A stretch of 35,511 nt of DNA. Origin: Candidatus Woesearchaeota archaeon. Lineage in GTDB: Archaea > Nanobdellota > Nanobdellia > Pacearchaeales > GW2011-AR1. Every line of letters begins with the position of its first letter. Position 1 is the stretch's first letter. The DNA is taken from NCBI GenBank assembly GCA_964366925.1, contig CAYIVX010000003.1, forward strand, positions 1-35,511, written 5' to 3'. This document shows positions 2,748 through 35,511 of the stretch, piece after piece. Made by a program: the position numbers and the translations under genes. The notes under the pieces were generated by a model, which saw nothing but the letters and a program-made list of their open reading frames with translations, did no database searches and was not told where the DNA came from.

Positions 2748-2828
2748 TTTTCTGTCTTTTAAAATCGAAAACTCTTGTTCCAAGAGTGCGGAGTATTAAA
2801 CCACGATTTTAAAATAAACAACAGAAAA
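2748..2828. repeat. 81-nt long imperfect inverted repeat; candidate structured RNA or miniature element
   Basis: TTTTCTGT (2748-2755) pairs with ACAGAAAA (2821-2828). TTTTAAAATCG (2757-2767) pairs with CGATTTTAAAA (2804-2814). Inner hairpin CTCTTG ttc CAAGAG at 2771-2785. Confidence 0.5.
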
Positions 2829-3069
2829 CTATAAAAACCAACAATGCCAATAATAATCATGAAAGCACAATCAAATATACAAATCATGACAAAAACTAGT
2901 TCAAAGCGTTATTTTTGTCAAACTAAAACTAGGATTTATCGGCACTAACCGAAACGATTTTTCTAGCCTGAGCTTTAATTCTAAAAACATTTGTTTACTA
3001 TCTTTAAATTACGAAAATGGTTTAACCGCTAGTCCCAATATTTATAAATTTGAAATCTGTATTGTTATT

Positions 3070-7039: not shown

Positions 7040-7058
7040 TATTTATTCTCTAATCACT

Positions 7059-7110
7059 GAAAGAAATCTGCAATATAAATGTTGCTGTTGTTCTACTGCA
7101 AATTTCTTTC
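7059..7110 (-). promoter_or_regulatory. 14-bp stem-loop in the leader/promoter of ORF 6476-7039
   Basis: GAAAGAAATCTGCA (7059-7072) and TGCAAATTTCTTTC (7097-7110) pair at 13/14 positions. The loop holds a TATA-like TTTATATT on the minus strand. Confidence 0.4.
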
Positions 7111-7118
7111 GGAGAATC

Positions 7119-7174
7119 CAAAAAACAATGCACCACCAATTAAAGTAGGGGTCTAATTGGCATTTGTTTTTTTG
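7119..7174 (+). promoter_or_regulatory. A-tract/T-tract long imperfect hairpin upstream of the thermosome operon
   Basis: CAAAAAACA-ATGC-...-CCAATTA (7119-7142) pairs with TAATTGG-GCAT-...-TGTTTTTTTG (7154-7174) with small bulges. Confidence 0.35.
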
Positions 7175-7246
7175 ATTTTTTAAGTTAAAAACCTTTGTAT
7201 ACTCTTATATCCAAATCTTTAAAAGAGAAAAAAAGGATTATATTAT

Positions 7247-7546
7247 ATGAAAAAAAGATATACGCATATGCGAGTAACAAGATTTGGTTTTAAAGAACTT
7301 CACGAGTCATTAGTAGAGCATAGTTATAGTGAAGAATTTATTAAAGGTTATTTTAATCTAAGAGATTCACTTTCTAAATTAAGATGGGATAAAAAAGCAT
7401 CTTTAGGAGATAGACTTCTTTGTATAAATCTAAAGACTATTGCTAGTTCTAATTTTCATCCCATGAGTAAAACTATGGATGATATGATGTATGAACTAGG
7501 TTCTAGATATGCTGAGCAATTAATAAATTCAGTATCAGTAGAATAA
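7247..7546 (+). CDS. hypothetical small protein (99 aa), first gene of the thermosome operon
   Basis: ATG ORF, 6 nt from the next ORF. No family recognised. Confidence 0.45.
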   Translation: MKKRYTHMRVTRFGFKELHESLVEHSYSEEFIKGYFNLRDSLSKLRWDKKASLGDRLLCINLKTIASSNFHPMSKTMDDMMYELGSRYAEQLINSVSVE

Positions 7547-17538: not shown

Positions 17539-17573
17539 ACGAGGAGAGCCGCGTTCAATTCGCGGGCGGCGCA
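17539..17573 (+). tRNA. 3' half (positions 38-73) of the split tRNA-Gly(GCC)
   Basis: A/CGAGG/AGAG/CCGCG-TTCAATT-CGCGG/GCGGCGC/A. Canonical T-arm. The acceptor 3' strand pairs 7/7 (one G-U) with GCGCTGC at 14283. CGAGG pairs 5/5 (one G-U) with TCTCG at 14309. Confidence 0.6.
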
Positions 17574-17615
17574 TAATTGAACTTTAGCAAAGATTAAGAT
17601 AAAAATTATTCCGAA

Positions 17616-19620: not shown

Positions 19621-19627
19621 AATAATA

Positions 19628-19671
19628 TTACGGCTACATCATTTATAAATGTTTCTAAGATGTAGCCGTAA
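19628..19671 (-). promoter_or_regulatory. perfect 13-bp inverted repeat bracketing a TATA-like box directly upstream of fic
   Basis: TTACGGCTACATC (19628-19640) and GATGTAGCCGTAA (19659-19671). The 18-nt spacer reads TTTATAAAT on the minus strand. The arm ends 8 nt from the fic ATG. Confidence 0.6.
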
Positions 19672-19683
19672 GAATAGATTATG

Positions 19684-19699: not shown

Positions 19700-19742
19700 A
19701 TAGTTTTAAAAGCTATTTCTTAATTATTCTGGTATGAAACAA

Positions 19743-19814
19743 TAAAAAACTTCTACGTCCCTTCGGGTTCGTGTAAAAAAGTTTTTTACATTCAGAAAAT
19801 CAAGGATTTTCTGA
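19743..19814 (+). promoter_or_regulatory. conserved two-hairpin upstream module, copy A (upstream of tfs)
   Basis: Outer stem TAAAAAACTT/AAGTTTTTTA (19743-19752 and 19779-19788) encloses CCC-ttc-GGG. Then TCAGAAAAT-caagg-ATTTTCTGA (19792-19814). A/C-rich leader to the ATG at 19842. Confidence 0.6.
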
Positions 19815-19841
19815 CTGTTCTTTTTGTTTCACAAAAACAAC

Positions 19842-20189
19842 ATGGGCATAATCTTTTGTGATAAATGCGGAAAAATAATGAAAATAGAAAAAGATGTAGT
19901 TAGTGGTAATAATGTTGCAAAATGTCTTTGTGGTTTTGAAATGCCTCTTAATAGTCATGATCATGAAGTAAGTTCTATCGAGTCTATAAAAAAACAGCCA
20001 GAGATTGGAAAAGGTGCTGTAAGCACTAAAAATAAGCTTGCTACATTTCCACATGAATGTACAAAATGTGGTCACGATGGGGCTGAAGTTATAGACCTGG
20101 GAGTCTGGTATGGTGATGAAGCGGGAGTTATACGATATAAATGCGGAAAATGCGGACATACAGATCAGGATAAAGAGAGTAATACTTAA
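19842..20189 (+). CDS. tfs: transcription factor S / RpoM-like (TFIIS-type zinc-ribbon protein)
   Basis: N-terminal zinc ribbon FCDKCGKIM...CLCG. C-terminal ribbon CTKCGHDGAEV...YGDEAGVIRYKCGKCGH with an acidic DE loop. About 115 aa from the ATG at 19842. Confidence 0.75.
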   Translation: MGIIFCDKCGKIMKIEKDVVSGNNVAKCLCGFEMPLNSHDHEVSSIESIKKQPEIGKGAVSTKNKLATFPHECTKCGHDGAEVIDLGVWYGDEAGVIRYKCGKCGHTDQDKESNT

Positions 20190-23472: not shown

Positions 23473-23542
23473 AATTCTATAGTTCCTTCTTTTAGATAAG
23501 CTTTTTAAACCCAATTTTGTATTCTATCTTAAGTAAAACAAG

Positions 23543-23614
23543 TAAAAAACTTACGGTTCCCTTCGGGTTCGTGTAAAAAAGTTTTTTATATTCAGAAATT
23601 TAAGAAATTTCTGA
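23543..23614 (+). promoter_or_regulatory. conserved two-hairpin upstream module, copy B (upstream of rpl35ae)
   Basis: Near-identical to copy A over about 50 nt: TAAAAAACTT...CCCTTCGGGTTCGTGTAAAAAAGTTTTTTA. Then TCAGAAATTT-aag-AAATTTCTGA (23592-23614). Confidence 0.6.
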
Positions 23615-23653
23615 CTTTTTGTTTTGCTTAAATAAAGTAAAAACAAAACAAAT

Positions 23654-23911
23654 ATGATCAAGGGCAAAGTTATTCAATTTAGAAGAAGTTTAAAGCACGT
23701 ACACGAAAGACATTTTATTCTAGACTTTGGCACAAAAAATAAACTTGAAGCTACTAAATTAATTGGAAAAGAAGTTATATGGAAAAGTGAAGCAGGAAAA
23801 ATTATCTCTGGAAAAATTTCTGGTTCTCATGGAAGTAAAGGATTAGTTCGAGCTATTTTTGAGAGAGGATTACCTGGTCAAGCATTAAATACGGAAGTAG
23901 AGGTTAAATAA
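23654..23911 (+). CDS. rpl35ae: 50S ribosomal protein L35Ae (eL33)
   Basis: GKVIQFRRS ... GKEVIWKSEAGKIISGKISGSHGSKGLVRAIFERGLPGQALNTEVEV matches the archaeal L35Ae pattern closely. Confidence 0.93.
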   Translation: MIKGKVIQFRRSLKHVHERHFILDFGTKNKLEATKLIGKEVIWKSEAGKIISGKISGSHGSKGLVRAIFERGLPGQALNTEVEVK

Positions 23912-23918
23912 CTTGAAT

Positions 23919-23991
23919 ATGAAAAATCAACTAAAAGCTTCGCTTTGGCAATACAAGATTTTTCATACTCAGAAAATCAAAGATTTTCTGA
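23919..23991 (+). promoter_or_regulatory. conserved two-hairpin upstream module, copy C (upstream of rpl10e)
   Basis: Outer stem ATGAAAAATC/GATTTTTCAT (23919-23928 and 23957-23966). Inner AAAGC-ttc-GCTTT (23934-23946). TCAGAAAAT-caaag-ATTTTCTGA (23969-23991). Confidence 0.6.
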
Positions 23992-24019
23992 TTCTTCGCT
24001 ACAAGAGGTGTAGCTTCAG

Positions 24020-24574
24020 ATGGGAATAAGAAAAGCATTATCTTATACAAAAAGACAGGTAACTTCATACACTCGAAAGTCTATGAAGATTAAAAATAAA
24101 AATTATATTAAAGCTGTTCCTCTTCAGAAAGTTACAAAATTTAATATGGGCGATGTTAGAAAATTGCTTAAAGGCGGATTTACTAATTATATAGTTATTT
24201 ATTCTATGATGAATGTTCAAATAAGAGATTTGGCTCTTGAAGCAACAAGACAGATGTTGAATAATAGACTTACAAAAATGTTAATGAATAACTACTCTTT
24301 ACTTTGTAAACCCTATCCTCATCAAGTTATAAGAGAAAATAAAACTTTCTCTGGCGGTTCGAAAGGAGAAAGAGTTCAGTCGGGTATGGCTCACTCGTTT
24401 GGAACAACCATGGCAAGAAGTGCTGTTGTTAAAGTTGGAGACCCTATTTTTATTATTGCTTATCAAGATAAGAAAAATACAGAAGCAATAAGAACACTTG
24501 TAAAAAGTGCTGTTCCTAAATTACCTTGCCAGTGTAAAATAATCTATGAAGAAAATAGAGTAATACCTCAATAA
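24020..24574 (+). CDS. rpl10e: 50S ribosomal protein L10e (uL16)
   Basis: N-terminal Y-x-R/K-rich segment, PLQKVTKFNMGD, EA-x-R, and GMAHSFGTTMARSAVVKVGDPIF. Length about 184 aa. Confidence 0.88.
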   Translation: MGIRKALSYTKRQVTSYTRKSMKIKNKNYIKAVPLQKVTKFNMGDVRKLLKGGFTNYIVIYSMMNVQIRDLALEATRQMLNNRLTKMLMNNYSLLCKPYPHQVIRENKTFSGGSKGERVQSGMAHSFGTTMARSAVVKVGDPIFIIAYQDKKNTEAIRTLVKSAVPKLPCQCKIIYEENRVIPQ

Positions 24575-25167: not shown

Positions 25168-28100
25168 GTGGTTATTAAAAAGAGAATGGACGAGATTAGT
25201 GCATCTGGCAAATATGTTAAATGGCTTTCTGAATTATCCAAGGATAGCGGAAGTGTTGCTGGTGGAAAGGGTGCGAATCTTGCAGAAATGTATAATTCTG
25301 GTTTTCCTGTGCCTCCTGCATTTTGCATAACTGCTCAGGCTTTTGATGCCTATCTCGTGGCTGCTGGATTAAAAGCAGAAATTAATAGAATAATAAAAGA
25401 TACAGACATAGATAATACTAAAGAGTTAGATGTTAATGCTAAAAAAATTCGTGAGATAATAACTAAGTCTGAAATGCCTGAAGAAATGAGTGAAGAGATT
25501 ATAGAAGCTTATGAAATACTTAGTACAGACCAAGAAGTTAAAAAAGCAGAATCTAGATTTGTTGTTTCCAAGAGTGCATTAGATATTTTAAAGAATAGTC
25601 ATGAGTCGGTTTTTGTTGCAGTTCGTTCATCTGCTACTACTGAAGATTTGGCTACTGCAAGTTTTGCAGGACAGCAAGATACTTATACAAATATTAAGGG
25701 AAATAAAGAATTAATTCTTGCTGTAAAAAAATGTTTTGCTTCACTTTATACTGCTAGGGCCGTTTACTATAGAAAGAAAAAAGGATTCAAGGAAGGCGAA
25801 GCTTTACTTTCAGTAACTGTTCAAAAAATGGTTAATTCTGATAAGTCAGGGGTTGTTTTTACTAAAAATCCTGTAAGTGGTGCTAATGAGATTATTATGG
25901 AAGCTGTTTTTGGACTTGGTGAGGGAATTGTTTCTGGAAAAATAAAACCAGACCATTATGTTATTAATCCTGATTTAGATATTGTAGAAAAAAAGATAGC
26001 TGATAAAAAAGTAGCAATAGTAAGACAAGCAGATGGTGAAGAAAAAACCGTGACTCTTACTCCTGAGAAGAGTAAGCAACAGGTTATGAGTGATGCTGAA
26101 ATAAAAAGTTTAGCTTATACTGTTCAGAAAATAGAAGAGCATTATAAGAAACCCCAAGATATTGAATTTGCAGTAGAGACAGGAAGAATTTTTATTGTTC
26201 AATCAAGGCCAGTAACTACGATTGAAAAAAGCAGTGCTATTAAGAAACAAATACTTTCTGGAAATGTTTTATTATCGGGAATGCCTGCTTCGCCTGGAGT
26301 TGCTTTTGGACCTGTTAAATTAGTTCATACTTTGGATGACCTTGAAAAGATTATGAAGGGAGACATTCTTGTTACTAAAATGACTAATCCAGATATGGTC
26401 GTGGCTATGCAAAGATGTTCTGCGATAATTACTGACGAAGGCGGGGCTACTGCTCATGCTGCGATAGTTTCTAGGGAAATGGGAATTCCGTGTTTTTCTG
26501 GAGATACAATAATAATGACTGACAAAGGATTTATTAATTTGGCTGATGCAAATAATAGAATTTTAAACGGAGAAATAATACACACGCTTAGTTTTGATAT
26601 TCAAAAATTGAAAACTGAATGGAAACAAATATTAAATACAAGCAAAAGACAATCGCCTACAATAACTATTTCAGCATCTAAAAATGGGCAAGTAGAATGG
26701 AATACCCTAACGACTACTCCTGAACATAAATTTTTCAGCTTTGAAAGTCGTGTGCCCTGTTATAAAAAAATAAACGAAATACTTGCAAATGAGAGCATAA
26801 TTTATTCTGCTAATAAAATGCCTATCTTGCCTCAAATTTTAACAATTAATCCGCAAAAAGCATATACTTGTGGAGCTATTTTTTCAGATGGTTATTTAAG
26901 AATAAAAAAGGGTGGTGGAGGTTCTACAGTATTTGCACAGAAATCAACACCACAAAAAATGGAATTTATTAATGAAGTATGCAAAAATTTTGAAAATGTT
27001 TATGATTATAAGCTAAGATGGGTTAGACCTTCTTATTACTATTGTTATAGCAAAAAAATAACTGAAGACTTGTTAAACATTTATGACAATATTAATAAAA
27101 TTATTTTGGGATTGGATGAATATTCTATCATCAAATATCTTGCTTCTATTATTGATGGCGATGGAAATTTTATAGAAAGAGGCAAGGTAATCAAAATAAG
27201 CATTGATGCTAAAGATGTAAATCTCCTTCAATCTTTGGTTTTAAGTTGCATGAGACTTGGATTAAATTATAGAATTCGAAAAGAAGATAATCAATTTAGA
27301 TTCTATATAACTTCTGGAATAGAAAAATTAAAACCCTATCTAAAAAGAGTTATCGTGACTAATTATGAAAAAACAACGGGAGATACTTATTTTTCAGCTA
27401 AACATCTTTTTTTAGATATACCTATATGTGGCAGAAAAGGTATAAAATCTTTTGTTAAGAATAATTGTTTATTATCTGAAAGAGAAATTGCTGAAAAAAT
27501 AATACCATTCGTAAAAGACAATAGTTTAAGAGAAACTCTTTCAAAATTTGTAAATTCAAATATCGGGGCATTGAGGGTTAAAAAAATATCAGATAATGCT
27601 GTTGAAGATGTTTATAACATTGAAGTAGCAGATAATAATAATTATATTGTTTTTACTAAACTATTAACACCTTTAATAGTAAAGAATTGTGTTGTCGCAA
27701 CAGAAACTGCTACGCAAACACTCAAAGATGGACAAATAGTTACTGTTGATGGAAGTGGGGGGAAAGTTTATGATGGAAAGGTTGAAGAAAAAATTGCAGA
27801 GGGAGTAAAAGAAATATTGCCTATTGTTAGAGGTACTAAAACTAAGATTAAAGTGATGGTTGATTTGCCTTCTTTTGCTGAAAGGGCTGCTAAATCTCAA
27901 GCAGATGCAGTAGGATTAATGCGACTTGAGGGTATTATCGCTGAAAGTGGAAAGCATCCATTGTATTATGTTAAAAATGGCAATCCCCATGAATATAGAG
28001 ATGTTATTGAAGATGGTGTTTCAAAAATATCTAAACACTTTAAAGAAATTTGGGTAAGAACTTCAGATATTCGAACTGATGAATTTAGGCATTTAAAGGG

Positions 28101-28953
28101 TGCTCCTGCTGAAGTTGAAGTTAATCCCATGCTTGGATTTCACGGTATAAGATTTAGTTTGAAAAATATTCCTATTATGGAAGCAGAAATTGAAGCTGTA
28201 AGTAGGGTAGCTGAAAAAAATCCAACTAAAAAGTTTGGACTTATGTTTCCCCAAGTAATAAGTGAAGAAGAAATGGCTGAAGCATATAAAATTTATAAAA
28301 AATTCCAAAAACCAAATCTTATTATTGGAACAATGATTGAAACTCCTGCGGCTGTTCAAGTTATTCGTGGAATATGTAAGTATGCTAAATTTATTAGTTT
28401 TGGAACAAATGATTTAACTCAATTTACACTTGCTATTGATAGAGGCAATGCAGAATGCCAGTATATGTATAATGAGATGCATCCTGCAATTTTATCACAA
28501 CTTCGCCGAGTTATTGATGTTTGCAAAGAATATAAAGTTGAAACTTCGATTTGCGGACAGGCTGGCTCAAAAAAAGAAATGGTTGAATTTCTCGTTCGTC
28601 AGGGTATTGATTCTATTAGTGTTAATGCTGATATGGCACATGATATTAGCCAATATGTGTTAGAGTTAGAAACTAAATTAAAAAGTCAGGGGAATAAGAA
28701 TAATAATCCCTCAAAAAAACCTAGTGTTCTTCCTGTTGATGACATGTCTGAAATAGAAGAAAAAGAAAATGAGAAAGTAGCAGATGTTGAAAAGAGAAAG
28801 ATGGTGCATCTTCATCGCAAGGATTCAAAAACAGAAGTTGTGGAAGAAAAAGAAAGTGCTGAAGAAGAGAAGGAAGATAACGATAATAAAAAAGAAGCCG
28901 AAGAATATCCTGTTTTTGAGATAGGCTTTGACCCGTTTAAAGAAGTTAGGTGA
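25168..28953 (+). CDS. ppsA: phosphoenolpyruvate synthase (pyruvate, water dikinase) interrupted by an in-frame intein; acidic/Lys-rich C-terminal extension
   Basis: GGKGANLAEM; the ATP-grasp N-domain; phospho-His region ITDEGGATAHAAIVSREMGIP; and the C-terminal PEP-utilising TIM barrel (GLMRLEG, MIETPAA, FGTNDLTQ). The start is a GTG at 25168, with an alternative ATG at 25186. Confidence 0.92.
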   Translation: MVIKKRMDEISASGKYVKWLSELSKDSGSVAGGKGANLAEMYNSGFPVPPAFCITAQAFDAYLVAAGLKAEINRIIKDTDIDNTKELDVNAKKIREIITKSEMPEEMSEEIIEAYEILSTDQEVKKAESRFVVSKSALDILKNSHESVFVAVRSSATTEDLATASFAGQQDTYTNIKGNKELILAVKKCFASLYTARAVYYRKKKGFKEGEALLSVTVQKMVNSDKSGVVFTKNPVSGANEIIMEAVFGLGEGIVSGKIKPDHYVINPDLDIVEKKIADKKVAIVRQADGEEKTVTLTPEKSKQQVMSDAEIKSLAYTVQKIEEHYKKPQDIEFAVETGRIFIVQSRPVTTIEKSSAIKKQILSGNVLLSGMPASPGVAFGPVKLVHTLDDLEKIMKGDILVTKMTNPDMVVAMQRCSAIITDEGGATAHAAIVSREMGIPCFSGDTIIMTDKGFINLADANNRILNGEIIHTLSFDIQKLKTEWKQILNTSKRQSPTITISASKNGQVEWNTLTTTPEHKFFSFESRVPCYKKINEILANESIIYSANKMPILPQILTINPQKAYTCGAIFSDGYLRIKKGGGGSTVFAQKSTPQKMEFINEVCKNFENVYDYKLRWVRPSYYYCYSKKITEDLLNIYDNINKIILGLDEYSIIKYLASIIDGDGNFIERGKVIKISIDAKDVNLLQSLVLSCMRLGLNYRIRKEDNQFRFYITSGIEKLKPYLKRVIVTNYEKTTGDTYFSAKHLFLDIPICGRKGIKSFVKNNCLLSEREIAEKIIPFVKDNSLRETLSKFVNSNIGALRVKKISDNAVEDVYNIEVADNNNYIVFTKLLTPLIVKNCVVATETATQTLKDGQIVTVDGSGGKVYDGKVEEKIAEGVKEILPIVRGTKTKIKVMVDLPSFAERAAKSQADAVGLMRLEGIIAESGKHPLYYVKNGNPHEYRDVIEDGVSKISKHFKEIWVRTSDIRTDEFRHLKGAPAEVEVNPMLGFHGIRFSLKNIPIMEAEIEAVSRVAEKNPTKKFGLMFPQVISEEEMAEAYKIYKKFQKPNLIIGTMIETPAAVQVIRGICKYAKFISFGTNDLTQFTLAIDRGNAECQYMYNEMHPAILSQLRRVIDVCKEYKVETSICGQAGSKKEMVEFLVRQGIDSISVNADMAHDISQYVLELETKLKSQGNKNNNPSKKPSVLPVDDMSEIEEKENEKVADVEKRKMVHLHRKDSKTEVVEEKESAEEEKEDNDNKKEAEEYPVFEIGFDPFKEVR
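26491..27687 (+). mobile_element. 399-aa intein with a LAGLIDADG homing-endonuclease domain inside ppsA
   Basis: Starts CFSGDTIIM directly after REMGIP. Has TTPEHKF (block B), GAIFSDGYL and LASIIDGDGNF (DOD motifs), and VYNIEVADNNNYIV (block F). Ends IVKN, followed by the +1 Cys (CVVATE). Confidence 0.88.
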
Positions 28954-28965
28954 TTAAGATAGGGA
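28918..28965 (+). repeat. junction repeat copy A (the real ppsA 3' end plus the HepT-1 stop region)
   Basis: gagataggctttgacccgtttaaagaagttaggtgattaagataggga. Confidence 0.7.
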
Positions 28966-29367
28966 CTTATTTATTTGAGCTATGAATTCTTCGATATCTG
29001 CTCTAAATTCTTCTTTAAGTGCATAGAAAACTTTAGCATTGTCTATTTCACCATATCTATGTGCAATAAAGTTTCGCATGCCTCTAAGATCTATCATCTT
29101 TTGACATAAATCATAAGAAATTATCTTATTTTCTGCTAATATTTTAAAAGTGCTCTCGTCATTATTTGGAATTCTGAATTTTTTAAATCTGATAAAATAT
29201 AGTGCAATTTCAACTACATATTCACTTATTACTTCAAAATTATTCTGACAAGCGGCTCTTGTTTTTCCATCGGCTTCATAATCGTCATATTCTTCAGGAA
29301 GCCAACTATAAATCTCTTCTAACAGATTTTCAATATCTTTTATTTTCTCTTTTATTCTTTTTTCCAT
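28954..29367 (-). CDS. hepT: HepT-like HEPN/DUF86 toxin (cassette 1)
   Basis: GMRNFIAHRYGEID carries the R-x4-H HEPN motif of DUF86. Overlaps the upstream MNT gene by 16 nt. Confidence 0.8.
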   Translation of the reverse strand: MEKRIKEKIKDIENLLEEIYSWLPEEYDDYEADGKTRAACQNNFEVISEYVVEIALYFIRFKKFRIPNNDESTFKILAENKIISYDLCQKMIDLRGMRNFIAHRYGEIDNAKVFYALKEEFRADIEEFIAQINKSLS

Positions 29368-29855
29368 ATTGTTTTGCCTTTGCTGTCTATCTCTTTTTTA
29401 ATTTTATTTGGGAGAATATTATAAACTTGTATATCTATTTTGTCTGGAAGTTTTCCTAAACAATTAATGCGAAATTCTGTAACTTCTTTTTGTGATATTT
29501 CCGAAAATGTAACTGCAAGATCTATATCGGATTTGTATGTCAATGTATTTTCAGCAGCAGAACCATATAAGATAATTCTTTTTATTTTTGAAAAATATTT
29601 GCTTTCTAAAATAATTTCTTTTGCATTTTCTATTCTTTCTTTCAGAAATTTTCCCCTTTTTAATTCAAAATCGTCTTTAAAATTGGCAAGTATCCCTATA
29701 ATTTCAAATTTTTTTCTTATATCTCTTGAGAGACGGGTTTGCTCGGAAGCTGTTAACTTTATTCCATTTAGCTGTTTGTCAATTATTTCTATTTCTTTTT
29801 TTCCAAATATCTTTCGTGCATCTTTATTGGTTTTCAGGGCATTTAATAAGTTCAT
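29352..29855 (-). CDS. mntA: MntA-like nucleotidyltransferase antitoxin with an extra N-terminal ~60-aa domain (cassette 1)
   Basis: LYGSAAENTLTYKSDIDLAV is the NT motif. The N-terminal segment ...LTASEQTRLSRDIRKKFE is conserved with cassette 2. Confidence 0.8.
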   Translation of the reverse strand: MNLLNALKTNKDARKIFGKKEIEIIDKQLNGIKLTASEQTRLSRDIRKKFEIIGILANFKDDFELKRGKFLKERIENAKEIILESKYFSKIKRIILYGSAAENTLTYKSDIDLAVTFSEISQKEVTEFRINCLGKLPDKIDIQVYNILPNKIKKEIDSKGKTIWKKE

Positions 29856-29883
29856 TTTTCAGTTTATCTCCATAAGTTTTTCT

Positions 29884-29920
29884 TATCACTATTATGATAA
29901 AATATATCACTATTATGATA
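29884..29920 (-). promoter_or_regulatory. two phased TATCA-N6-TGATA palindromes (operator-like) between the TATA box and the MNT-1 start
   Basis: TATCACTATTATGATA at 29884-29899 and again at 29905-29920, 21-bp phasing. Minus-strand TATA TTTAAATA at 29930-29937. Confidence 0.55.
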
Positions 29921-29944
29921 TATTTTAACTATTTAAAGCTTTCT

Positions 29945-29992
29945 GAGATAGCTTTTGATCCTTTTCAAGAAGTTAGGTGATTAAGATAGAGA
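29945..29992 (+). repeat. junction repeat copy B (non-coding copy of the ppsA 3' end)
   Basis: gagatagcttttgatccttttcaagaagttaggtgattaagatagaga. 42/48 positions identical to copy A in my manual alignment. Confidence 0.7.
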
Positions 29993-30421
29993 TTTCTTTA
30001 TTTTTTCTAAAAATTCTTCAGAGTCTTTAACTATTTCTTCTGAAAATGCGTGCAAAACAATAGAATCATCAACAGTAATATAATTATGGACTATTCTATT
30101 TCGCATATCTTTTGCATCTTTTAATCTTTTGGCGAATTCTTCAGAGATAACTCCGTTCTTGAAAAGAATAAAGAATGCATGCTCTTCATCCTCTGGCTGT
30201 TTAAGATTCTTATATCTTATTAAAAGAAGAGTTAGACTTATTATGGTTTCAATAATCTTCTCAAAATATCTTTCACATGCAGCCTTTAGCTGAATATCTT
30301 GTCTATATTGTTCTAGCTCGGGAATTTCAAACCTTTCGAATTCTTCTAAGTATTTTTCTAACTCTGCTATCTTTTCATCTATTCTGTTCTTGATAGTTAA
30401 TCTTTTTTGTTGTTCATTCAT
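29981..30421 (-). CDS. hepT: HepT-like HEPN/DUF86 toxin (cassette 2)
   Basis: DMRNRIVHNYITVD carries the R-x4-H motif. 4-nt overlap with the upstream MNT gene. Confidence 0.8.
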   Translation of the reverse strand: MNEQQKRLTIKNRIDEKIAELEKYLEEFERFEIPELEQYRQDIQLKAACERYFEKIIETIISLTLLLIRYKNLKQPEDEEHAFFILFKNGVISEEFAKRLKDAKDMRNRIVHNYITVDDSIVLHAFSEEIVKDSEEFLEKIKKSLS

Positions 30422-30921
30422 TTTCTTTCGTATAATAACTTGCCATTCTTATCAATCTGTTTTTTTATCTTTTCTGGAAGTATATTATATACCTGAAGGT
30501 CTAACTTTCCCGAGAATATTCCACCAATTCGTGAACAAAAGGTTAGAGCAGTTTTTTCATCAATCTTGTCAAAATCTACAGCAATATCAATATCTGACAT
30601 TAATGTTTGTTCATTTTCAGCTGTTGAGCCAAATAATAGGATTCTCCTAATGCTTGGAAAAAGTTCAGTTTGCTTTATTCTTTCCAAGGTTTCATTTATA
30701 ATGCGCTTTTTCTCTTCACTTCGTTTTAGTCCAAATTCCTCCTTGTATTCAGAAAGTTCTTTGATTGCTTCAAATTTCTTTCTTATATCTCTGGAAAGTC
30801 TTACTCTCTCGGAAGGCTCGAGTCTAACTCCTCTAAGTTGTTTTTCAATTATCTTTAGCTCTCGCTTTCCAAATAATCTTCTTATATTTTCATTATTTTT
30901 AATTGAGTTTAGTAAGCTCAT
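30418..30921 (-). CDS. mntA: MntA-like nucleotidyltransferase antitoxin with an N-terminal extra domain (cassette 2)
   Basis: LFGSTAENEQTLMSDIDIAV. The start is set at MSLLNS (30921) by alignment with cassette 1; the track ORF extends to 30954. Confidence 0.78.
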   Translation of the reverse strand: MSLLNSIKNNENIRRLFGKRELKIIEKQLRGVRLEPSERVRLSRDIRKKFEAIKELSEYKEEFGLKRSEEKKRIINETLERIKQTELFPSIRRILLFGSTAENEQTLMSDIDIAVDFDKIDEKTALTFCSRIGGIFSGKLDLQVYNILPEKIKKQIDKNGKLLYERK

Positions 30922-30945
30922 ATTCAGTATCTTATTATAAATTGT

Positions 30946-30982
30946 TATCATCATAGTGATAACAATTATCCTAATTATGATA
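30946..30982 (-). promoter_or_regulatory. two phased TATCA-N6-TGATA palindromes upstream of MNT-2
   Basis: TATCATCATAGTGATA (30946-30961) and TATCCTAATTATGATA (30967-30982). Same 21-bp phasing as cassette 1. Minus-strand TATA at 30992-30999. Confidence 0.55.
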
Positions 30983-33394: not shown

Positions 33395-33534
33395 ATCAAA
33401 AAGCAACGAAACCCTTCGGGTTGAGTAAATGACCTTTTTGATATTCAGAAAATTAAGAATTCAGGAAATAAAATTTCCTGACTCTCCAACTTTCACAAGT
33501 TGAAGATTTTCTGACTGTTCGTTTTGTAACGAAC
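33395..33534 (+). promoter_or_regulatory. conserved upstream module, copy D; expanded version with nested hairpins
   Basis: Outer stem ATCAAAAAG/CTTTTTGAT (33395-33403 and 33434-33442) around CCC-ttc-GGG. TCAGAAAAT (33445-33453) pairs with ATTTTCTGA (33506-33514) across two inserted hairpins (33461-33481 and 33487-33502). Extra hairpin GTTCGTT/AACGAAC at 33517-33534. Confidence 0.6.
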
Positions 33535-33555
33535 ATAAAACACAAAACAAACAAC

Positions 33556-33738
33556 ATGGTAAAATCAACACAAGAACAATTAGAATCTAGACTAAATAGT
33601 TCTAGAGCTAGATTTATATTTGCTGTAGCTAATGGTGCTCCACAAAATGTTCGTGAAATTGTTTTAAAAGAGTATAGTCAAGCTAGCGATGACTGTTCTC
33701 AAGAAAAATATAAAGGGTTTTATGCCGAGTTAAAATAA
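33556..33738 (+). CDS. hypothetical small protein (60 aa)
   Basis: ATG ORF directly downstream of module copy D. The stop is 1 nt before the next ATG. Confidence 0.4.
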   Translation: MVKSTQEQLESRLNSSRARFIFAVANGAPQNVREIVLKEYSQASDDCSQEKYKGFYAELK

Positions 33739-34353: not shown

Positions 34354-35169
34354 TTATTCAATAAATTTCTTTATGGTTTCAGCCATTACTCGAATAAATT
34401 CATCTGCACGGGCTTGAAGAATATCTATATTAGCTCCCCGAACATCTGTTGTTTGTCCATGCATTATGGATTTGTAAAGCATAAATGTTTCATTATACCA
34501 CGCCGCATATTTATCATTCAAAAGTTTTTTATTTACGAACTCTTCTCTTAAAATGTTGGTAATTTGTTCAGGGCTTGCTGGCCTTAATTTTGCAGACATT
34601 AAAAGTGCATGGGCAGAATCAACCATTGCCCAATAAACACCCTCTACTGCACCCATTGCTGCCCTTTTACTAGCGGCTAGATGAAGTGGAGCTCGTTGCA
34701 ATGCAGTATAAATCGCTTCAGGGCTAGAAGTTATTTTTCCCTCTTGAAGCAGAATTTTAAGAGGTCTAAAAAATCCACCAAAATCAACAAGGTCTTCACC
34801 ATACCTAATTATATTAAGAACTACGGGGTCGCCTTTAATTAAATCATGCCACCAGGTAGTAAGCTTTACAGTATTGATATGAAGTTCACTTTTATAGGGA
34901 TTTATGGAAATTAATTTTCCTAATTCTTCCCTATACCAGGCGGTAAGCTCTTCATCAAATCTTACAGAAGCATCATCAACAATAAGAATGATATCAATAT
35001 CCGAGCCAGCAGTTTTTGTTTGTTTTGCAGTAGATCCAAATAGAATAACGGACTTAATCATCTTATCAAACTTTTGATAAACTTTATTTGCAAAATCTGC
35101 AGCAATATCTCTCTCACTAATTAAATTAAGAGTAGGATAATCTTTTATATTAAGTTTTTTACTAACCAT
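34354..35169 (-). CDS. nucleotidyltransferase-domain protein with a fused C-terminal helical (HEPN/KNTase_C-like) domain (271 aa)
   Basis: ILFGSTAKQTKTAGSDIDIILIVDD is the NT motif. SSPEAIYTALQRAPLHL...VYWAMVDSAHALLMSAKL parallels ORF 20720-22585. Confidence 0.75.
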   Translation of the reverse strand: MVSKKLNIKDYPTLNLISERDIAADFANKVYQKFDKMIKSVILFGSTAKQTKTAGSDIDIILIVDDASVRFDEELTAWYREELGKLISINPYKSELHINTVKLTTWWHDLIKGDPVVLNIIRYGEDLVDFGGFFRPLKILLQEGKITSSPEAIYTALQRAPLHLAASKRAAMGAVEGVYWAMVDSAHALLMSAKLRPASPEQITNILREEFVNKKLLNDKYAAWYNETFMLYKSIMHGQTTDVRGANIDILQARADEFIRVMAETIKKFIE

Positions 35170-35209
35170 GTTGTTTTTGCTCTTGTTATTTTAGAAGCAA
35201 AAATAACAG

Positions 35210-35280
35210 TCAGAAATTTTCAATTTCTGAATTTCAAAAAGCTTGTAAGCCTAAAGCGAAGCTTTTATCTGCTTTTTGAA
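35210..35280 (-). promoter_or_regulatory. conserved two-hairpin upstream module, copy E (minus strand, upstream of NT gene 34354-35169)
   Basis: Read on the minus strand: TTCAAAAAGC ... AAAGC-ttc-GCTTT ... GCTTTTTGAA, then TCAGAAATT-gaa-AATTTCTGA, then an A/C-rich leader to the ATG at 35169. Confidence 0.6.
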
Positions 35281-35440
35281 TATTGTTTGCCTCTTTTTAT
35301 CTATTTAGGAATAGTTTTTCTAGGTTTTAAAGCTTTCCAAATATAGGGCAGATAAAACACAGCTTTTTTAAACAGCATTCACCTCTATAAAATATATTAA
35401 AAAGAGATAAAACAAACAAGGTAAAAAACTCACTAAGCCT

Positions 35441-35461
35441 CCAGAGAATAAAATTCTCTGG
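35441..35461 (+). promoter_or_regulatory. leader palindrome CCAGAGAAT-aaa-ATTCTCTGG upstream of the last (partial) ORF
   Basis: Same architecture as the TCAGAAAAT palindromes, followed by CTCTTCAAAACAAG...ATG at 35488. Confidence 0.4.
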
Positions 35462-35487
35462 CTCTTCAAAACAAGTATACGTCCAAA

Positions 35488-35511
35488 ATGGATATTTTGG
35501 AACGCCCCGAA
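35488..35511 (+). CDS. 5' end of an unidentified ORF running off the window (MDILERPE...)
   Basis: An ATG preceded by the palindrome plus an A/C-rich leader, as at other gene starts here. Only 8 codons are visible. Confidence 0.3.

Follow-up and report, generated by a model that had tools for sequence, protein, structure and literature searches.

REPs and MITEs are the described repeats closest to the module considered here. REPs are found mainly downstream of genes, facing either way, and are associated with RAYT transposases; MITEs are flanked by target-site duplications and can insert in both orientations. In sequence, REPs are G+C-rich and MITEs carry terminal inverted repeats (PMC3184786, PMC10969869 for MITEs; PMC3184786 for REPs), and a further point of comparison is provided by the putative mobile promoters, or promoter reuse (PMC3575422). 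The window, a 35,511-nucleotide stretch of DNA from a Candidatus Woesearchaeota archaeon, contains five copies of a module that is ~100 nt long (~160 nt in copy D) and stands in front of tfs (copy A), rpl35ae (B), rpl10e (C), a 60-aa ORF (D), and a nucleotidyltransferase gene (E). The module looks like an undescribed RNA leader rather than a promoter switch. The reading favored here, held with about as much confidence as doubt, is that of a repeated ~100-nt, RNA-level leader cassette of REP/MITE-like character that is gained and lost among relatives and that would present or gate the start codon.

All five copies that a first-pass annotation had reported are found at their positions in the window (Table 1). 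The annotation described two hairpins, but the module has three, H1, H2, and H3, which directly adjoin one another and are preceded by a short A/C-rich single strand, S1. The outer stems of H1 read as first described, TAAAAAACTT/AAGTTTTTTA in copies A and B, ATGAAAAATC/GATTTTTCAT in copy C, ATCAAAAAG/CTTTTTGAT in copy D, and TTCAAAAAGC/GCTTTTTGAA in copy E, as do the inner hairpins, CCC-TTC-GGG or AAAGC-TTC-GCTTT. Copies A and B, 3.8 kb apart and noted as nearly identical over ~50 nt, share 82% identity across 94 nt. The palindrome of H2, TCAGAAAWT-N3-5-AWTTTCTGA, searched as TCAGAAAWW-N3-7-WWTTTCTGA, gives four exact matches in the window as compared with 0.01 expected from shuffles; the annotated gap of 3–5 nt does not extend to copy D, where the halves are 52 nt apart, and the CTG said to follow the palindrome is present in copies A, D, and E and is replaced by CTT in B and TTC in C. 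What had been taken for a plain A/C-rich stretch before the ATG is the 3′ arm of H3, the 5′ arm of which is the T/G-rich run after this CTG. The first pass had missed H3, the base pair formed by the A of the ATG, and the presence or absence of the module among related genomes. Every window copy folds far better than its shuffles (z of −4.1 to −6.6), and a covariance model of H1 and H2 scores the window copies at 71–92 bits, the next matches, mostly the same palindromes on the reverse strand, reaching at most 27 bits. Among the looser relatives that had been proposed, one is weakly recovered at 35438–35504 on the minus strand (22.9 bits, E ~0.01), and those at 778–830 and 32629–46 go undetected by the covariance model. 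The 52-nt insert of copy D contains an H2-like stem, TCAGGAAAT (33461–69) with ATTTCCTGA (33473–81), plus a small hairpin, 33488–93 with 33498–503.

Table 1. Positions of the five module copies, their hairpins, and the associated promoter elements in the window
Feature	Position	Strand	Description
Copy A	19743-19841	+	Upstream of tfs
TATA box upstream of copy A	19704..19711	+	Canonical TTTTAAAA; common to module-free tfs orthologues
Copy A S1	19734..19742	+	Single-stranded 5′ segment ATGAAACAA; holds putative relic ATG
Copy A H1	19743..19788	+	Outer stem 19743-52 / 19779-88; inner hairpin 19759-67 (CCC TTC GGG)
Copy A H2	19792..19814	+	TCAGAAAAT caagg ATTTTCTGA
Copy A H3	19816..19842	+	TGTTcTTTTTG ... 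CAAAAAcAACA; last paired base is A of tfs ATG (19842)
Copy B	23543-23653	+	Upstream of rpl35ae
TATA box upstream of copy B	23501..23509	+	Canonical CTTTTTAAA
Copy B S1 and H1	23533..23588	+	S1 TAAAACAAG 23533-41; outer stem 23543-52 / 23579-88
Copy B H2	23592..23614	+	From palindrome search and fold
Copy B H3	23617..23648	+	From fold; rpl35ae ATG at 23654
Copy C	23919-24019	+	Upstream of rpl10e
Copy C H1	23919..23966	+	Begins 8 nt past rpl35ae stop codon (23909-11)
Copy C H2	23969..23991	+	From palindrome search and fold
Copy C H3	23993..24020	+	Loop holds Shine-Dalgarno-like AGAGGTG (24004-10); rpl10e ATG at 24020
Copy D	33395-33555	+	Upstream of 60-aa ORF
Copy D H1	33395..33442	+	Begins 4 nt past stop codon of upstream gene (33389-91)
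Copy D H2	33445..33514	+	Halves 33445-53 and 33506-14; 52-nt insert between
Copy D nested insert	33454..33505	+	Inside H2 loop; forms two hairpins
Copy D H3 region	33516..33556	+	ATG of 60-aa ORF at 33556
Copy E	35280-35170	-	Upstream of nucleotidyltransferase gene
TATA box upstream of copy E	35324..35331	-	Canonical TTTAAAAC; kept in L114 (module absent) and L057 (module present)
Copy E S1 and H1	35233..35291	-	S1 GGCAAACAAT 35291-82; outer stem 35280-71 / 35242-33
Copy E H2	35210..35230	-	From palindrome search and fold
Copy E H3	35169..35208	-	Last paired base is A of nucleotidyltransferase ATG (35169)

The search beyond the window that the first pass had suggested added over 100 copies from genomes and metagenomes of Woesearchaeota/Nanoarchaeota (DPANN), the gathered set amounting to at least 103 unique copies. 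About 1 gene in 10 has the module in front of it in this small archaeon from groundwater and in related genomes. A same-orientation ORF begins within 150 nt downstream in 92 of the 103 copies listed. The downstream genes are mutually unrelated, with 85 Pfam families among 88 genes for the copies listed, and a gene-specific cis-regulatory leader (a riboswitch or r-protein leader) was rejected on this count. They include genes for ribosomal proteins, RNA polymerase subunits, EF-2, and RadA, and recurring gene families bear the module in different genomes. No two separate loci among the copies listed carry near-identical modules, the top identity being 92%. A Shine-Dalgarno-like tetramer separates H2 from the ATG in just 11 of 87 copies. 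Matches from Pelagibacter, Bacteroidota, and other bacteria in the first genome scan are without H1 and were set aside as chance or unrelated, and the viral contigs searched gave one chance match and no true copy. In Pacearchaeota, a related hairpin family is located between convergent genes and at the ends of contigs. As to described RNAs, the only window matches to Rfam 15 at the gathering threshold are three tRNAs, and nothing convincing is found for the module at E values up to 10; below the threshold, copies B and C are best matched by Yfr10, on the reverse strand and with 26 bits where the gathering score is 43. Literature searches turned up nothing, so that the initial impression of an element without a described counterpart holds as far as tested. 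Guide RNAs were also rejected: for C/D-box RNAs, CUGA is present without a UGAUGA box; for H/ACA RNAs, an ACA follows H1 only in some subtypes, and K-turns and tandem G-A pairs are missing; and none of the snoRNA models reaches threshold on the module.

H1 is a 10-bp A-run/U-run stem bearing a small C-UUC-G hairpin. H2 is a 9–10-bp stem of strongly conserved sequence, UCAGAAAWU/AWUUUCUGA, although the seeming invariance of its bases and of those in the H1 3′ arm is partly built in, since the copies were gathered by patterns that fixed part of each. Variants of H2 found without requiring its sequence stay paired (TCTGGAAATT/AATTTCCAGA and TCTGAAAATC/GATTTTCAGA), and the halves of copy D remain complementary across the 52-nt insert. 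The loop of H2 measures 5 nt in 68 copies, 3 nt in 23, 6 nt in two, and 8 and 52 nt in one copy each. H3 consists of 4 bp, a conserved 1 × 1 mismatch, and 6 bp, and is AU-rich and weak, with a mean of −5.8 kcal/mol. It begins 1 nt past H2 in 72 of 86 copies, has its mismatch at position 5 in 71, and in 85 pairs a U with the A of the ATG, so that for any H3 loop length the start codon sits at the foot of H3, adjoining the base of H2. In the predicted fold, H3 has the makeup of a hairpin that masks a start site: weak, mismatched, and covering the initiation region. Old copies retain both the sequence of H2 and the mismatch of H3.

The first-pass annotation had argued from compensatory changes for an RNA or cruciform structure and had proposed a covariation test. 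Such changes are abundant in all three hairpins across ~90 independent copies, with 92–97% of cells paired and covariation of 0.31 against 0.08–0.10 in shuffles. For H1 and H2 in 91 copies, 92.5% of cells are paired, 13 pairs are changed on both sides, and the covariation of 0.307 compares with 0.097 in shuffles (none of 500 reaches it) and with at most 0.078 in slid controls; a single pair reads AU in 21 copies, UA in 20, GC in 19, and CG in 13. In 39 full-length copies that include H3, 97.5% of cells are paired and covariation is 0.316 against 0.081 in shuffles. RNAalifold recovers H1 and H2 unaided. Three further proposals for the leader did not hold up: pairing of S1 with the T/G-rich arm as a switch alternative to H3 (S1 does not covary with the arm, whereas S3, the A/C-rich segment at the 3′ end of the module, does), a conserved small ORF through H1 and H2 (there is no common reading frame), and a relic ATG in S1 as a general feature (29 ATG in 98 copies against ~30 expected, no enrichment).

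The same pairing could in principle act in DNA. The inner hairpin reads GCGAAGC or CCGAAGG on the reverse strand, and GCGAAGC, with its C-GAA-G triloop, forms very stable DNA mini-hairpins. Insertion without target duplication and strict orientation, both traits of IS200/IS605 elements, fit the module, and a test of strand, and of RNA versus single-stranded DNA, from mismatches in well-supported pairs favors neither strand (7 G-U versus 7 A-C). A single-stranded DNA signal, either a priming site or a hairpin for an IS200/IS605-type enzyme, is nevertheless very improbable. Orientation tracks the downstream gene and not any visible replication direction; a Pfam scan of 49 window proteins contains no transposase domain, and no TnpA, TnpB, or RAYT gene is seen in the window; and H3 is unlike H1 or H2, whereas the left-end and right-end hairpins of IS200/IS605 elements resemble each other. 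In 71 of 86 copies, moreover, the H3 mismatch is one of the sense strand; for 34 of these, the opposite strand would have a wobble pair.

The placement of the module with respect to promoters bears on whether it is transcribed. In ordinary window genes, the TATA box begins −27 to −32 from the ATG, which makes these genes leaderless, and genuine promoters of the window read TTTAAAA or the copy B form given in Table 1. Around the module, TATA-like hexamers are concentrated between −55 and −36 from H1, where four bins contain 49 of them (versus ~3–4 per bin elsewhere), and 34 of 55 copies without an upstream same-strand ORF have one at −58 to −34. About 40% of copies (39 of 94) have a same-strand stop codon within 45 nt upstream. 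Together, the TATA peak upstream of H1 and the copies directly after stop codons make it most likely that transcription includes the module, either as a 5′ leader or as an intercistronic spacer, with a start predicted from TATA spacing ~10–20 nt before H1. The ancestral TATA box is retained upstream of copies A, B, and E, and the ggTTTAAAAgc motif of copy A recurs ~25–31 nt before the ATG of the tfs orthologues of L240, L241, and L242. The ATG within S1 of copy A is probably a relic at the ancestral leaderless start position of tfs. A scan for bacterial promoters and terminators was uninformative.

The first-pass annotation had also considered a promoter inside the module. In this DNA-level reading, the T-run arm of H1 plus the following ANAY would be the TATA box, a dimeric repressor would use the palindrome between TATA and start site as its operator, and H1 would be a by-product or a cruciform. 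In line with this, A-N-A-Y follows the T-run in every copy seen, the preceding purine-rich bases resemble the BRE of this genome, no other promoter is obvious for copies directly after a stop codon, and a start site 23–26 nt downstream would fall on the conserved CTGACTG. A TATA-like hexamer is formed by the T-run arm, however, in only 19 of 103 copies; the arm commonly reads TTTTTGAAAT or TTTTTGAGAC, and its variable positions hold G or C in covariation with the 5′ arm. The canonical TATA boxes are instead enriched upstream of the whole module, 36–55 nt from H1, and are conserved with module-free orthologues. An operator is disfavored by a half-site gap of 3, 5, 6, 8, or 52 nt, by the compensatory nature of the changes in the palindrome, and by downstream genes that share no function and form no regulon. 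A start inside H2 would also leave its 5′ half untranscribed, yet the two halves in copy D have stayed complementary across the insert. The DNA-level reading is thus considered quite improbable.

It is also very doubtful that the A-run and T-run of H1 make up a bidirectional transcription terminator that isolates, or insulates, the downstream gene. Runs of five to six T are archaeal termination signals, the symmetry of A-run and T-run would serve both strands, and a stop codon precedes many copies. In copies A, B, and E, however, the module sits between a conserved promoter and the ATG, where an efficient terminator would silence the gene; sense-strand runs of at least five T occur often within genes (70 such runs in 30 kb, spread over 30 of 48 genes); and H2, H3, and the pairing of the AUG would be left unexplained.

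Structural conservation of the module is accompanied by considerable variability in its presence. For each of the five window sites, orthologous loci without the module exist in related genomes, and tfs, rpl35ae, the 60-aa ORF, and the nucleotidyltransferase gene lack it in close relatives. Module-free tfs and rpl35ae in relatives are leaderless; in L114, L116, L118, and L119, a TATA motif at the position of the copy B TATA box drives, as judged by position, a leaderless rpl35ae. Among syntenic relatives, copy density ranges from five in the 35.5-kb window to one in 19.5 kb of L114 and none in ~52 kb of L116, L118, and L119. The rpl35ae-rpl10e spacer is a module in L114, with a stem sequence that differs from that of the orthologous copy C and with the Shine-Dalgarno motif again in the H3 loop, and contains no module in L116. 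Gene callers are misled in this spacer, where ORFs of 37 aa (L114), 59 aa (L116), and 53 aa (L117) are called, and the start of tfs is annotated 12 codons too far downstream.

Such a distribution would suit a REP/MITE-like repeat that is entirely selfish, serves no purpose for the host, and is tolerated only at sites where its hairpins, by folding on themselves, loop out of the 5′ leader. Retention of the hairpins would then reflect either the harm that unfolding does to the gene or the needs of a mobilizing enzyme. Besides presence and absence at orthologous sites and very unequal copy density in syntenic relatives, several observations agree with this explanation. At the rpl35ae site, the window and L207 bear different H1 subtypes. 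The nucleotidyltransferase gene lacks the module in the closest relative and has it in more distant ones, and an old Shine-Dalgarno-like motif is retained upstream of the module at this gene. The nested insert of copy D, also present in L211 and L222, is placed within H3 in L192, and the Pacearchaeota hairpins at contig ends and between convergent genes would be related repeats. The strict orientation and position, with the A of the ATG almost always paired, speak against a purely selfish repeat, as do the gene families that bear the module in different genomes, the conservation of the H2 sequence and H3 mismatch in old copies, and the absence of near-identical copies across loci (maximum 92%). 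The module ends have no terminal inverted repeats, the inverted repeats being three separate internal hairpins, and filled and empty sites at A, B, D, and E show an ambiguous repeat of AAC (E) or ATG (A), none in B or D, and so no consistent target-site duplication; with no transposase in the window, these features likewise argue against it. Selfishness without host function is possible, though fairly unlikely.

From the repeat family, its three covarying structures, its position relative to TATA box, stop codon, and ATG, and its presence or absence at orthologous sites, all directly seen, we infer how the favored leader cassette could be transcribed, act in translation, and spread. Transcription would proceed from the ordinary upstream TATA box or through the module as the spacer between two operon genes. 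The module would serve as a portable leader that lets translation initiate in the absence of a Shine-Dalgarno sequence: a host factor or the small ribosomal subunit may recognize H2, the AUG would be presented or gated by H3, and H1 would act as an arm with a structural or insulating role. The family would colonize the position directly before start codons, each insertion turning a leaderless gene leadered or separating cistrons, and the module might later be lost again or replaced. The junction ACAAAC-ATG in L114 suggests that losses may run between the direct repeats S1 and S3. Counting against the leader cassette, no candidate binding protein has emerged, S1, S3, and H2 have no complementarity to the one related Nanoarchaeia 16S rRNA compared (L026), and landing at start codons is precise despite the lack of terminal inverted repeats, consistent target duplication, or a window transposase. 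Close relatives do without the module at the corresponding genes, so any benefit must be dispensable. A bolder version, which is unlikely, is a portable IRES-like leader of Woesearchaeota/Nanoarchaeota DPANN, in which H2 would recruit the small ribosomal subunit or an initiation factor and a mismatch-tuned H3 would hand over the AUG at its foot, allowing initiation on leadered mRNAs without Shine-Dalgarno sequences, and which would copy itself before start codons with neither inverted ends nor target duplication. If the leader cassette is real, ~1/10 of the genes in these reduced, uncultured archaea bear one standard structured leader, and a single insertion can convert a leaderless gene to a leadered one. 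The module would then bear on the open question of how archaea translate leadered mRNAs without Shine-Dalgarno sequences, for which it offers a defined ~100-nt RNA for testing.

Compared with known systems, the module has partial counterparts at both the DNA and the RNA level. It shares the half-site letters ATTTTC and GAAAAT with the CodY box of Firmicutes (AATTTTCWGAAAATT), which explains some of the literature-search matches; the halves are arranged oppositely, CodY is a bacterial protein for which we know of no archaeal counterpart, and the likeness is treated as coincidence. Similar to an archaeal BRE/TATA with an operator, it has a purine-preceded T-rich element and a palindrome ~25 nt before a possible start site, but the real TATA of this genome (TTTAAAA type) is further upstream, the half-site gap is variable, and there is no common regulon. 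H3 is reminiscent of RNA thermometers (fourU and ROSE) and translational operators in that it is weak and AU-rich, conserves an internal mismatch, and takes in part of the start codon; the known examples, in contrast, mask a Shine-Dalgarno sequence and are gene- or regulon-specific, and they are not repeated cassettes.

Among repeated elements, the putative mobile promoters (PMC3575422) resemble the module in placing highly similar 5′ regions before unrelated genes, within and between genomes. The main difference is that the repeated unit here is a transcribed leader, by the reading favored above, with a TATA box that lies outside it and is the gene's own. Like the MITEs Correia/NEMIS, ERIC, RUP, and BOX, which are non-coding repeats of ~100–150 nt inserted next to genes, the module gives predicted mRNA hairpins and differs in presence between close relatives. 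Its ends, however, are the direct A/C-rich repeats S1 and S3, its orientation is fixed, and sites A, B, D, and E, where a junction can be read, show no consistent duplication. With REPs and BIMEs it has in common short imperfect palindromes, many extragenic repeats apparently co-transcribed with genes, a structure kept while stems vary, and a copy number that differs by lineage. It departs from them in being AT-rich and archaeal, with no RAYT gene seen in the window, and in being always upstream and co-oriented, with three different hairpins that end on the start codon. If the leader-cassette reading is correct, the module adds an archaeal, start-codon-anchored type to the repeated palindromes of the REP/MITE kind.

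All five copies (A to E) that the first-pass annotation proposed for the ~100-nt module preceding start codons are confirmed in place (see the table), and each folds far better than shuffled sequence (z of -4.1 to -6.6). The folds contain both hairpins described there, H1 and H2, and a third that had been overlooked: H3, which ends at the ATG, is formed by a T/G-rich run 3' of H2 pairing with the presumed "A/C-rich leader", its 3' arm (S3). The H2 palindrome, TCAGAAAWW-N3-7-WWTTTCTGA, has four matches in the window versus 0.01 expected; the short spacing claimed for every copy does not hold for copy D, whose palindrome halves are separated by 52 nt that form two hairpins by themselves. Such a nested unit of ~48-52 nt occurs at two module positions, the H2 loop (in the window and on the related contigs L211 and L222) and inside H3 (L192), as if it were an insertable mini-element derived from H2 and H3. 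With a covariance model of H1 and H2, the five copies reach 71-92 bits; no other match in the window exceeds 27 bits, and most of these are the same palindromes read on the reverse strand. Of the "looser relatives" pointed out earlier (778-830, 32629-46 and 35441-61), only the last is recovered, weakly (22.9 bits), as part of a degenerate minus-strand relative.

The search patterns fixed TCAGAAA, TTTTTNANAY and CTTCG, and retained copies had at least 9/10 outer-stem pairs and an exact complement in H2, so selection accounts in part for the invariance of these bases and for how often helices 1 and 3 pair; it did not act on the inner stem, on H3 or on which bases make up the covarying pairs. In a MAFFT alignment of H1 and H2 from 91 copies, 92.5% of cells are paired (in part through this selection), both sides change in thirteen pairs (327 cells), and covariation is 0.307, a value that none of 500 column shuffles (0.097) attains; slid partners give no more than 0.078. 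One outer-stem pair is AU in 21 copies, UA in 20, GC in 19 and CG in 13, and further pairs are AU (44) or CG (41), and UA (36), CG (32) or GC (20). RNAalifold predicts the outer and inner stems of H1 and also H2 unaided from 39 full-length copies; with H3 added explicitly, 97.5% of cells are paired (again partly built in), covariation is 0.316 versus 0.081, and both sides change in four H3 pairs. The compensatory changes noted at first reading are thus borne out. Across 86 copies, the geometry of H3 is fixed: a start 1 nt past H2 (72 copies), a U as first base that is paired with the ATG's A (85) and a mismatch, of whatever kind, at position 5 (71); position 6 alternates between UA (33) and GC (27). 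Between H2 and the ATG, 26 nt is the commonest distance; copies with longer loops form a second group at 36-45 nt. Searching with H1 only yielded two H2 variants, TCTGGAAATT/AATTTCCAGA and TCTGAAAATC/GATTTTCAGA, in which pairing is kept.

In most window genes, a TATA-like hexamer starts 27-32 nt 5' of the ATG, and by the known archaeal TATA-to-start distance their mRNAs would be leaderless. Measured from the H1 start, such hexamers are most frequent at -55 to -36, where four 5-nt bins hold 49, versus ~3-4 per bin elsewhere; 34 of the 55 copies without a same-strand ORF ending just upstream have one at -58 to -34. Judged by how far TATA and ATG lie apart in this genome's leaderless genes, transcription most likely starts 10-20 nt 5' of H1, at an A/C-rich single strand (S1) that often reads AAAACAAACA. 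A same-strand stop codon lies at most 45 nt upstream in 39 of 94 copies, which are therefore intercistronic. The earlier suggestion that the T-run arm of H1 doubles as the TATA box is not upheld: no more than 19 of 103 copies hold a TATA-like hexamer in this arm, G or C is frequent at its variable positions, which covary with the 5' arm, and the TATA peak lies upstream of H1. A TATA/operator reading is less likely, as are a single-stranded-DNA signal and a terminator; since genes often contain T runs of at least five, efficient termination at the T5-6 of H1 is improbable.

A search for further copies, as the first-pass annotation had suggested, gave at least 103 different copies in genomes and metagenomes. 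Among the matches listed from a first pattern scan of one genome per species, true three-hairpin copies lie on L010 (Woesearchaeota MAG; two copies), on L022 (two copies) and L049 (Nanoarchaeota MAG from the Hainich H43 well) and on L057 (sediment archaeon); many bacterial matches are unrelated and have no H1. A more specific pattern (CTTCG, 15-17 nt, TTTTTNANAY, TCAGAAA) applied to metagenome contigs gave at least 119 loci, mostly true copies, and IMG/VR viral contigs a single chance match. Related contigs carry the labels Nanoarchaeota, Woesearchaeota or Pacearchaeota (DPANN archaea). The 88 downstream proteins match 85 Pfam families, including EF-2, Rad51/RadA, S19e, L35Ae, Spt4, cyclophilin, MacB-type permeases, MinD/ParA and nucleotidyltransferases (NT), which excludes a regulon-specific switch; several of these families turn up downstream of the module in more than one genome. 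No more than 11 of 87 copies have a Shine-Dalgarno-like tetramer between H2 and the ATG, located within the H3 loop or past H3. A second, related hairpin family is observed in Pacearchaeota/Nanoarchaeota, with an A-run/T-run hairpin (TCAAAAACC..GGTTTTTGA), GCACA and then the module's TCAGAAATT palindrome. It often stands in arrays of other hairpins with TCAG or CTGA loops, one array lying between convergent genes; the near-identity of some copies and their location at contig ends suggest a high copy number.

Orthologous sites differ in module content. The syntenic contig L114 (L10e 87% identical to the window) has copy C only: the same CTTTTTAAA box serves a leaderless rpl35ae, the 60-aa ORF begins 1 nt past the upstream stop codon, and at the NT gene the order is TATA, 39 nt, GGGG motif, ATG. 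Copies B and C are absent from L116, L118 and L119. Between L114 and the window, H1 and H2 of copy C are identical and the H3 stems wholly different, and despite this both H3 loops contain a GAGGTG motif. At the rpl35ae site, the window and L207 have different H1 subtypes. Three module-free TFS orthologues read TTTAAAA, ~25-31 nt, ATG; the window has this box too, then 22 nt, a relic ATG (19734), the module and the real ATG, and the relic would mark the ancestral leaderless start of tfs. The module precedes the NT gene in the window, in L218 (71% protein identity) and in L057 (66%) and is absent there in L114 (89%) and L119 (63%), a distribution that implies precise loss in L114 or repeated gain at the same site; under loss, the L114 junction ACAAAC-ATG could reflect S1 having recombined with S3. 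Identity between copies that precede unrelated genes reaches 92%, as high as among orthologous copies. Comparison of filled with empty sites, and the window proteins, revealed no consistent target duplication, terminal inverted repeats or transposase. A serious rival, compatible with a leader role, is a repeat that is purely selfish, with hairpins that do no more than loop out of the leader.

The window has ~30% G+C and encodes archaeal proteins (TFS, L35Ae, L10e, thermosome, PPDK); its L10e is matched on contigs from Hainich H43 groundwater (0.1 um fraction).

Positions of module copies and other features (window unless a contig is named)
Feature	Position	Strand	Remarks
Copy A	19743-19841	+	Before tfs
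Copy B	23543-23653	+	Before rpl35ae
Copy C	23919-24019	+	Before rpl10e
Copy D	33395-33555	+	Before 60-aa ORF
Copy E	35280-35170	-	Before NT gene
Degenerate module relative	35438-35504	-	Upstream of copy E promoter, truncated by window end; simple hairpin TCCAAAAT/ATTTTGGA, CCAGAGAAT-ttt-ATTCTCTGG (H2 with two compensatory changes), TTGTTTGTTTT run
Nested unit	33454-33505		Two hairpins: TYAGGAAAT-aaa-ATTTCCTRA, CTCTCC, small hairpin
Mini-ORF at relic ATG	19734-19745	+	Possible, leaderless, three codons (ATG AAA CAA TAA); stop codon is first bases of H1
tfs gene	19842-20189	+	Stored product begins 12 codons late (103 vs 115 aa), losing N-terminal zinc ribbon
Two hairpins	7054-7177	+	Between divergent genes, upstream of TATA box of gene at 7247; one with 25-nt arms (7054-78/7091-115), one H1-like (AATCCAAAAAACAA/TTGTTTTTTTGATT A-run/T-run stem, inner hairpin) without H2 or H3
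Inverted repeat	19623-19676		18-nt arms (TAATATTACGGCTACATC/GATGTAGCCGTAAGAATA) around TATA-like CATTTATAAATG of divergent Fic gene; similar 'ggctaca...tgtagcc' hairpin around a TATA-like motif in L182
Leader-like hairpin	2750-2845	+	TTTTAAAATCG/CGATTTTAAAA with inner hairpin, A/C-rich run, ATG (2845) of putative short ORF; yet not a family member by covariance model (24 bits, opposite strand)
Short ORF	35301-35378	-	25 codons (16 in L114 counterpart upstream of its NT gene); conserved start M(L/M)FKKAVFY, GAGGTG ahead, overlaps NT promoter; may be a real micro-protein or merely conserved promoter DNA
Pyruvate phosphate dikinase gene	25168-28953	+	1261 codons vs 864 in L114; Intein_splicing and LAGLIDADG_3 domains, hence intein inserted in window lineage
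Toxin-antitoxin pairs	28954-30954	-	Two NT/HepT-like pairs in tandem; duplicated flanks (repeat families D3, D7, D15; spacing ~1030-1066 nt)
tRNA 3'-half-like	17542-17585	+	T arm GCCGCG-TTCAATT-CGCGGG, acceptor strand CGGCGCA; 73% identical to 3' end of tRNA-Gly (14436-79); no 5' half nearby, no ARAGORN or Rfam detection; could be split-tRNA half, remnant or old integration site
37-aa ORF	L114 9885-9998		Called inside module, rpl35ae-rpl10e spacer; annotation artefact
59-aa ORF	L116 9813-9992		Called in rpl35ae-rpl10e spacer, yet no module detected there; annotation artefact
Second hairpin family	L014 6500-6800		Also L021, L028, L036, L042, L055, L063, L076, L087, L102

As read from sequence, the module is consistent with a structured cassette, transcribed as a leader or between cistrons, that would have been gained, lost and replaced over time. 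The AUG would lie at the foot of a weak, mismatch-tuned H3, directly beside the sequence-conserved H2, and the most economical idea of its role is accordingly that it may present or gate the start codon. The nearest known kinds are REP/BIME elements, co-transcribed MITEs (PMC3184786, PMC10969869) and "mobile promoters" (PMC3575422). Unlike MITEs, the module has no terminal inverted repeats. As possible target duplications, an ambiguous AAC (copy E) and ATG (copy A) are repeated, and nothing in B or D. The module does not match the positional pattern of REPs, and in contrast to mobile promoters its repeated unit leaves the promoter out. In agreement with the earlier remark that no described element has this layout, none was found in Rfam 15 or in the literature. 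On this comparison, the module is classed with repeated structured extragenic elements, its function and means of spread being putative.
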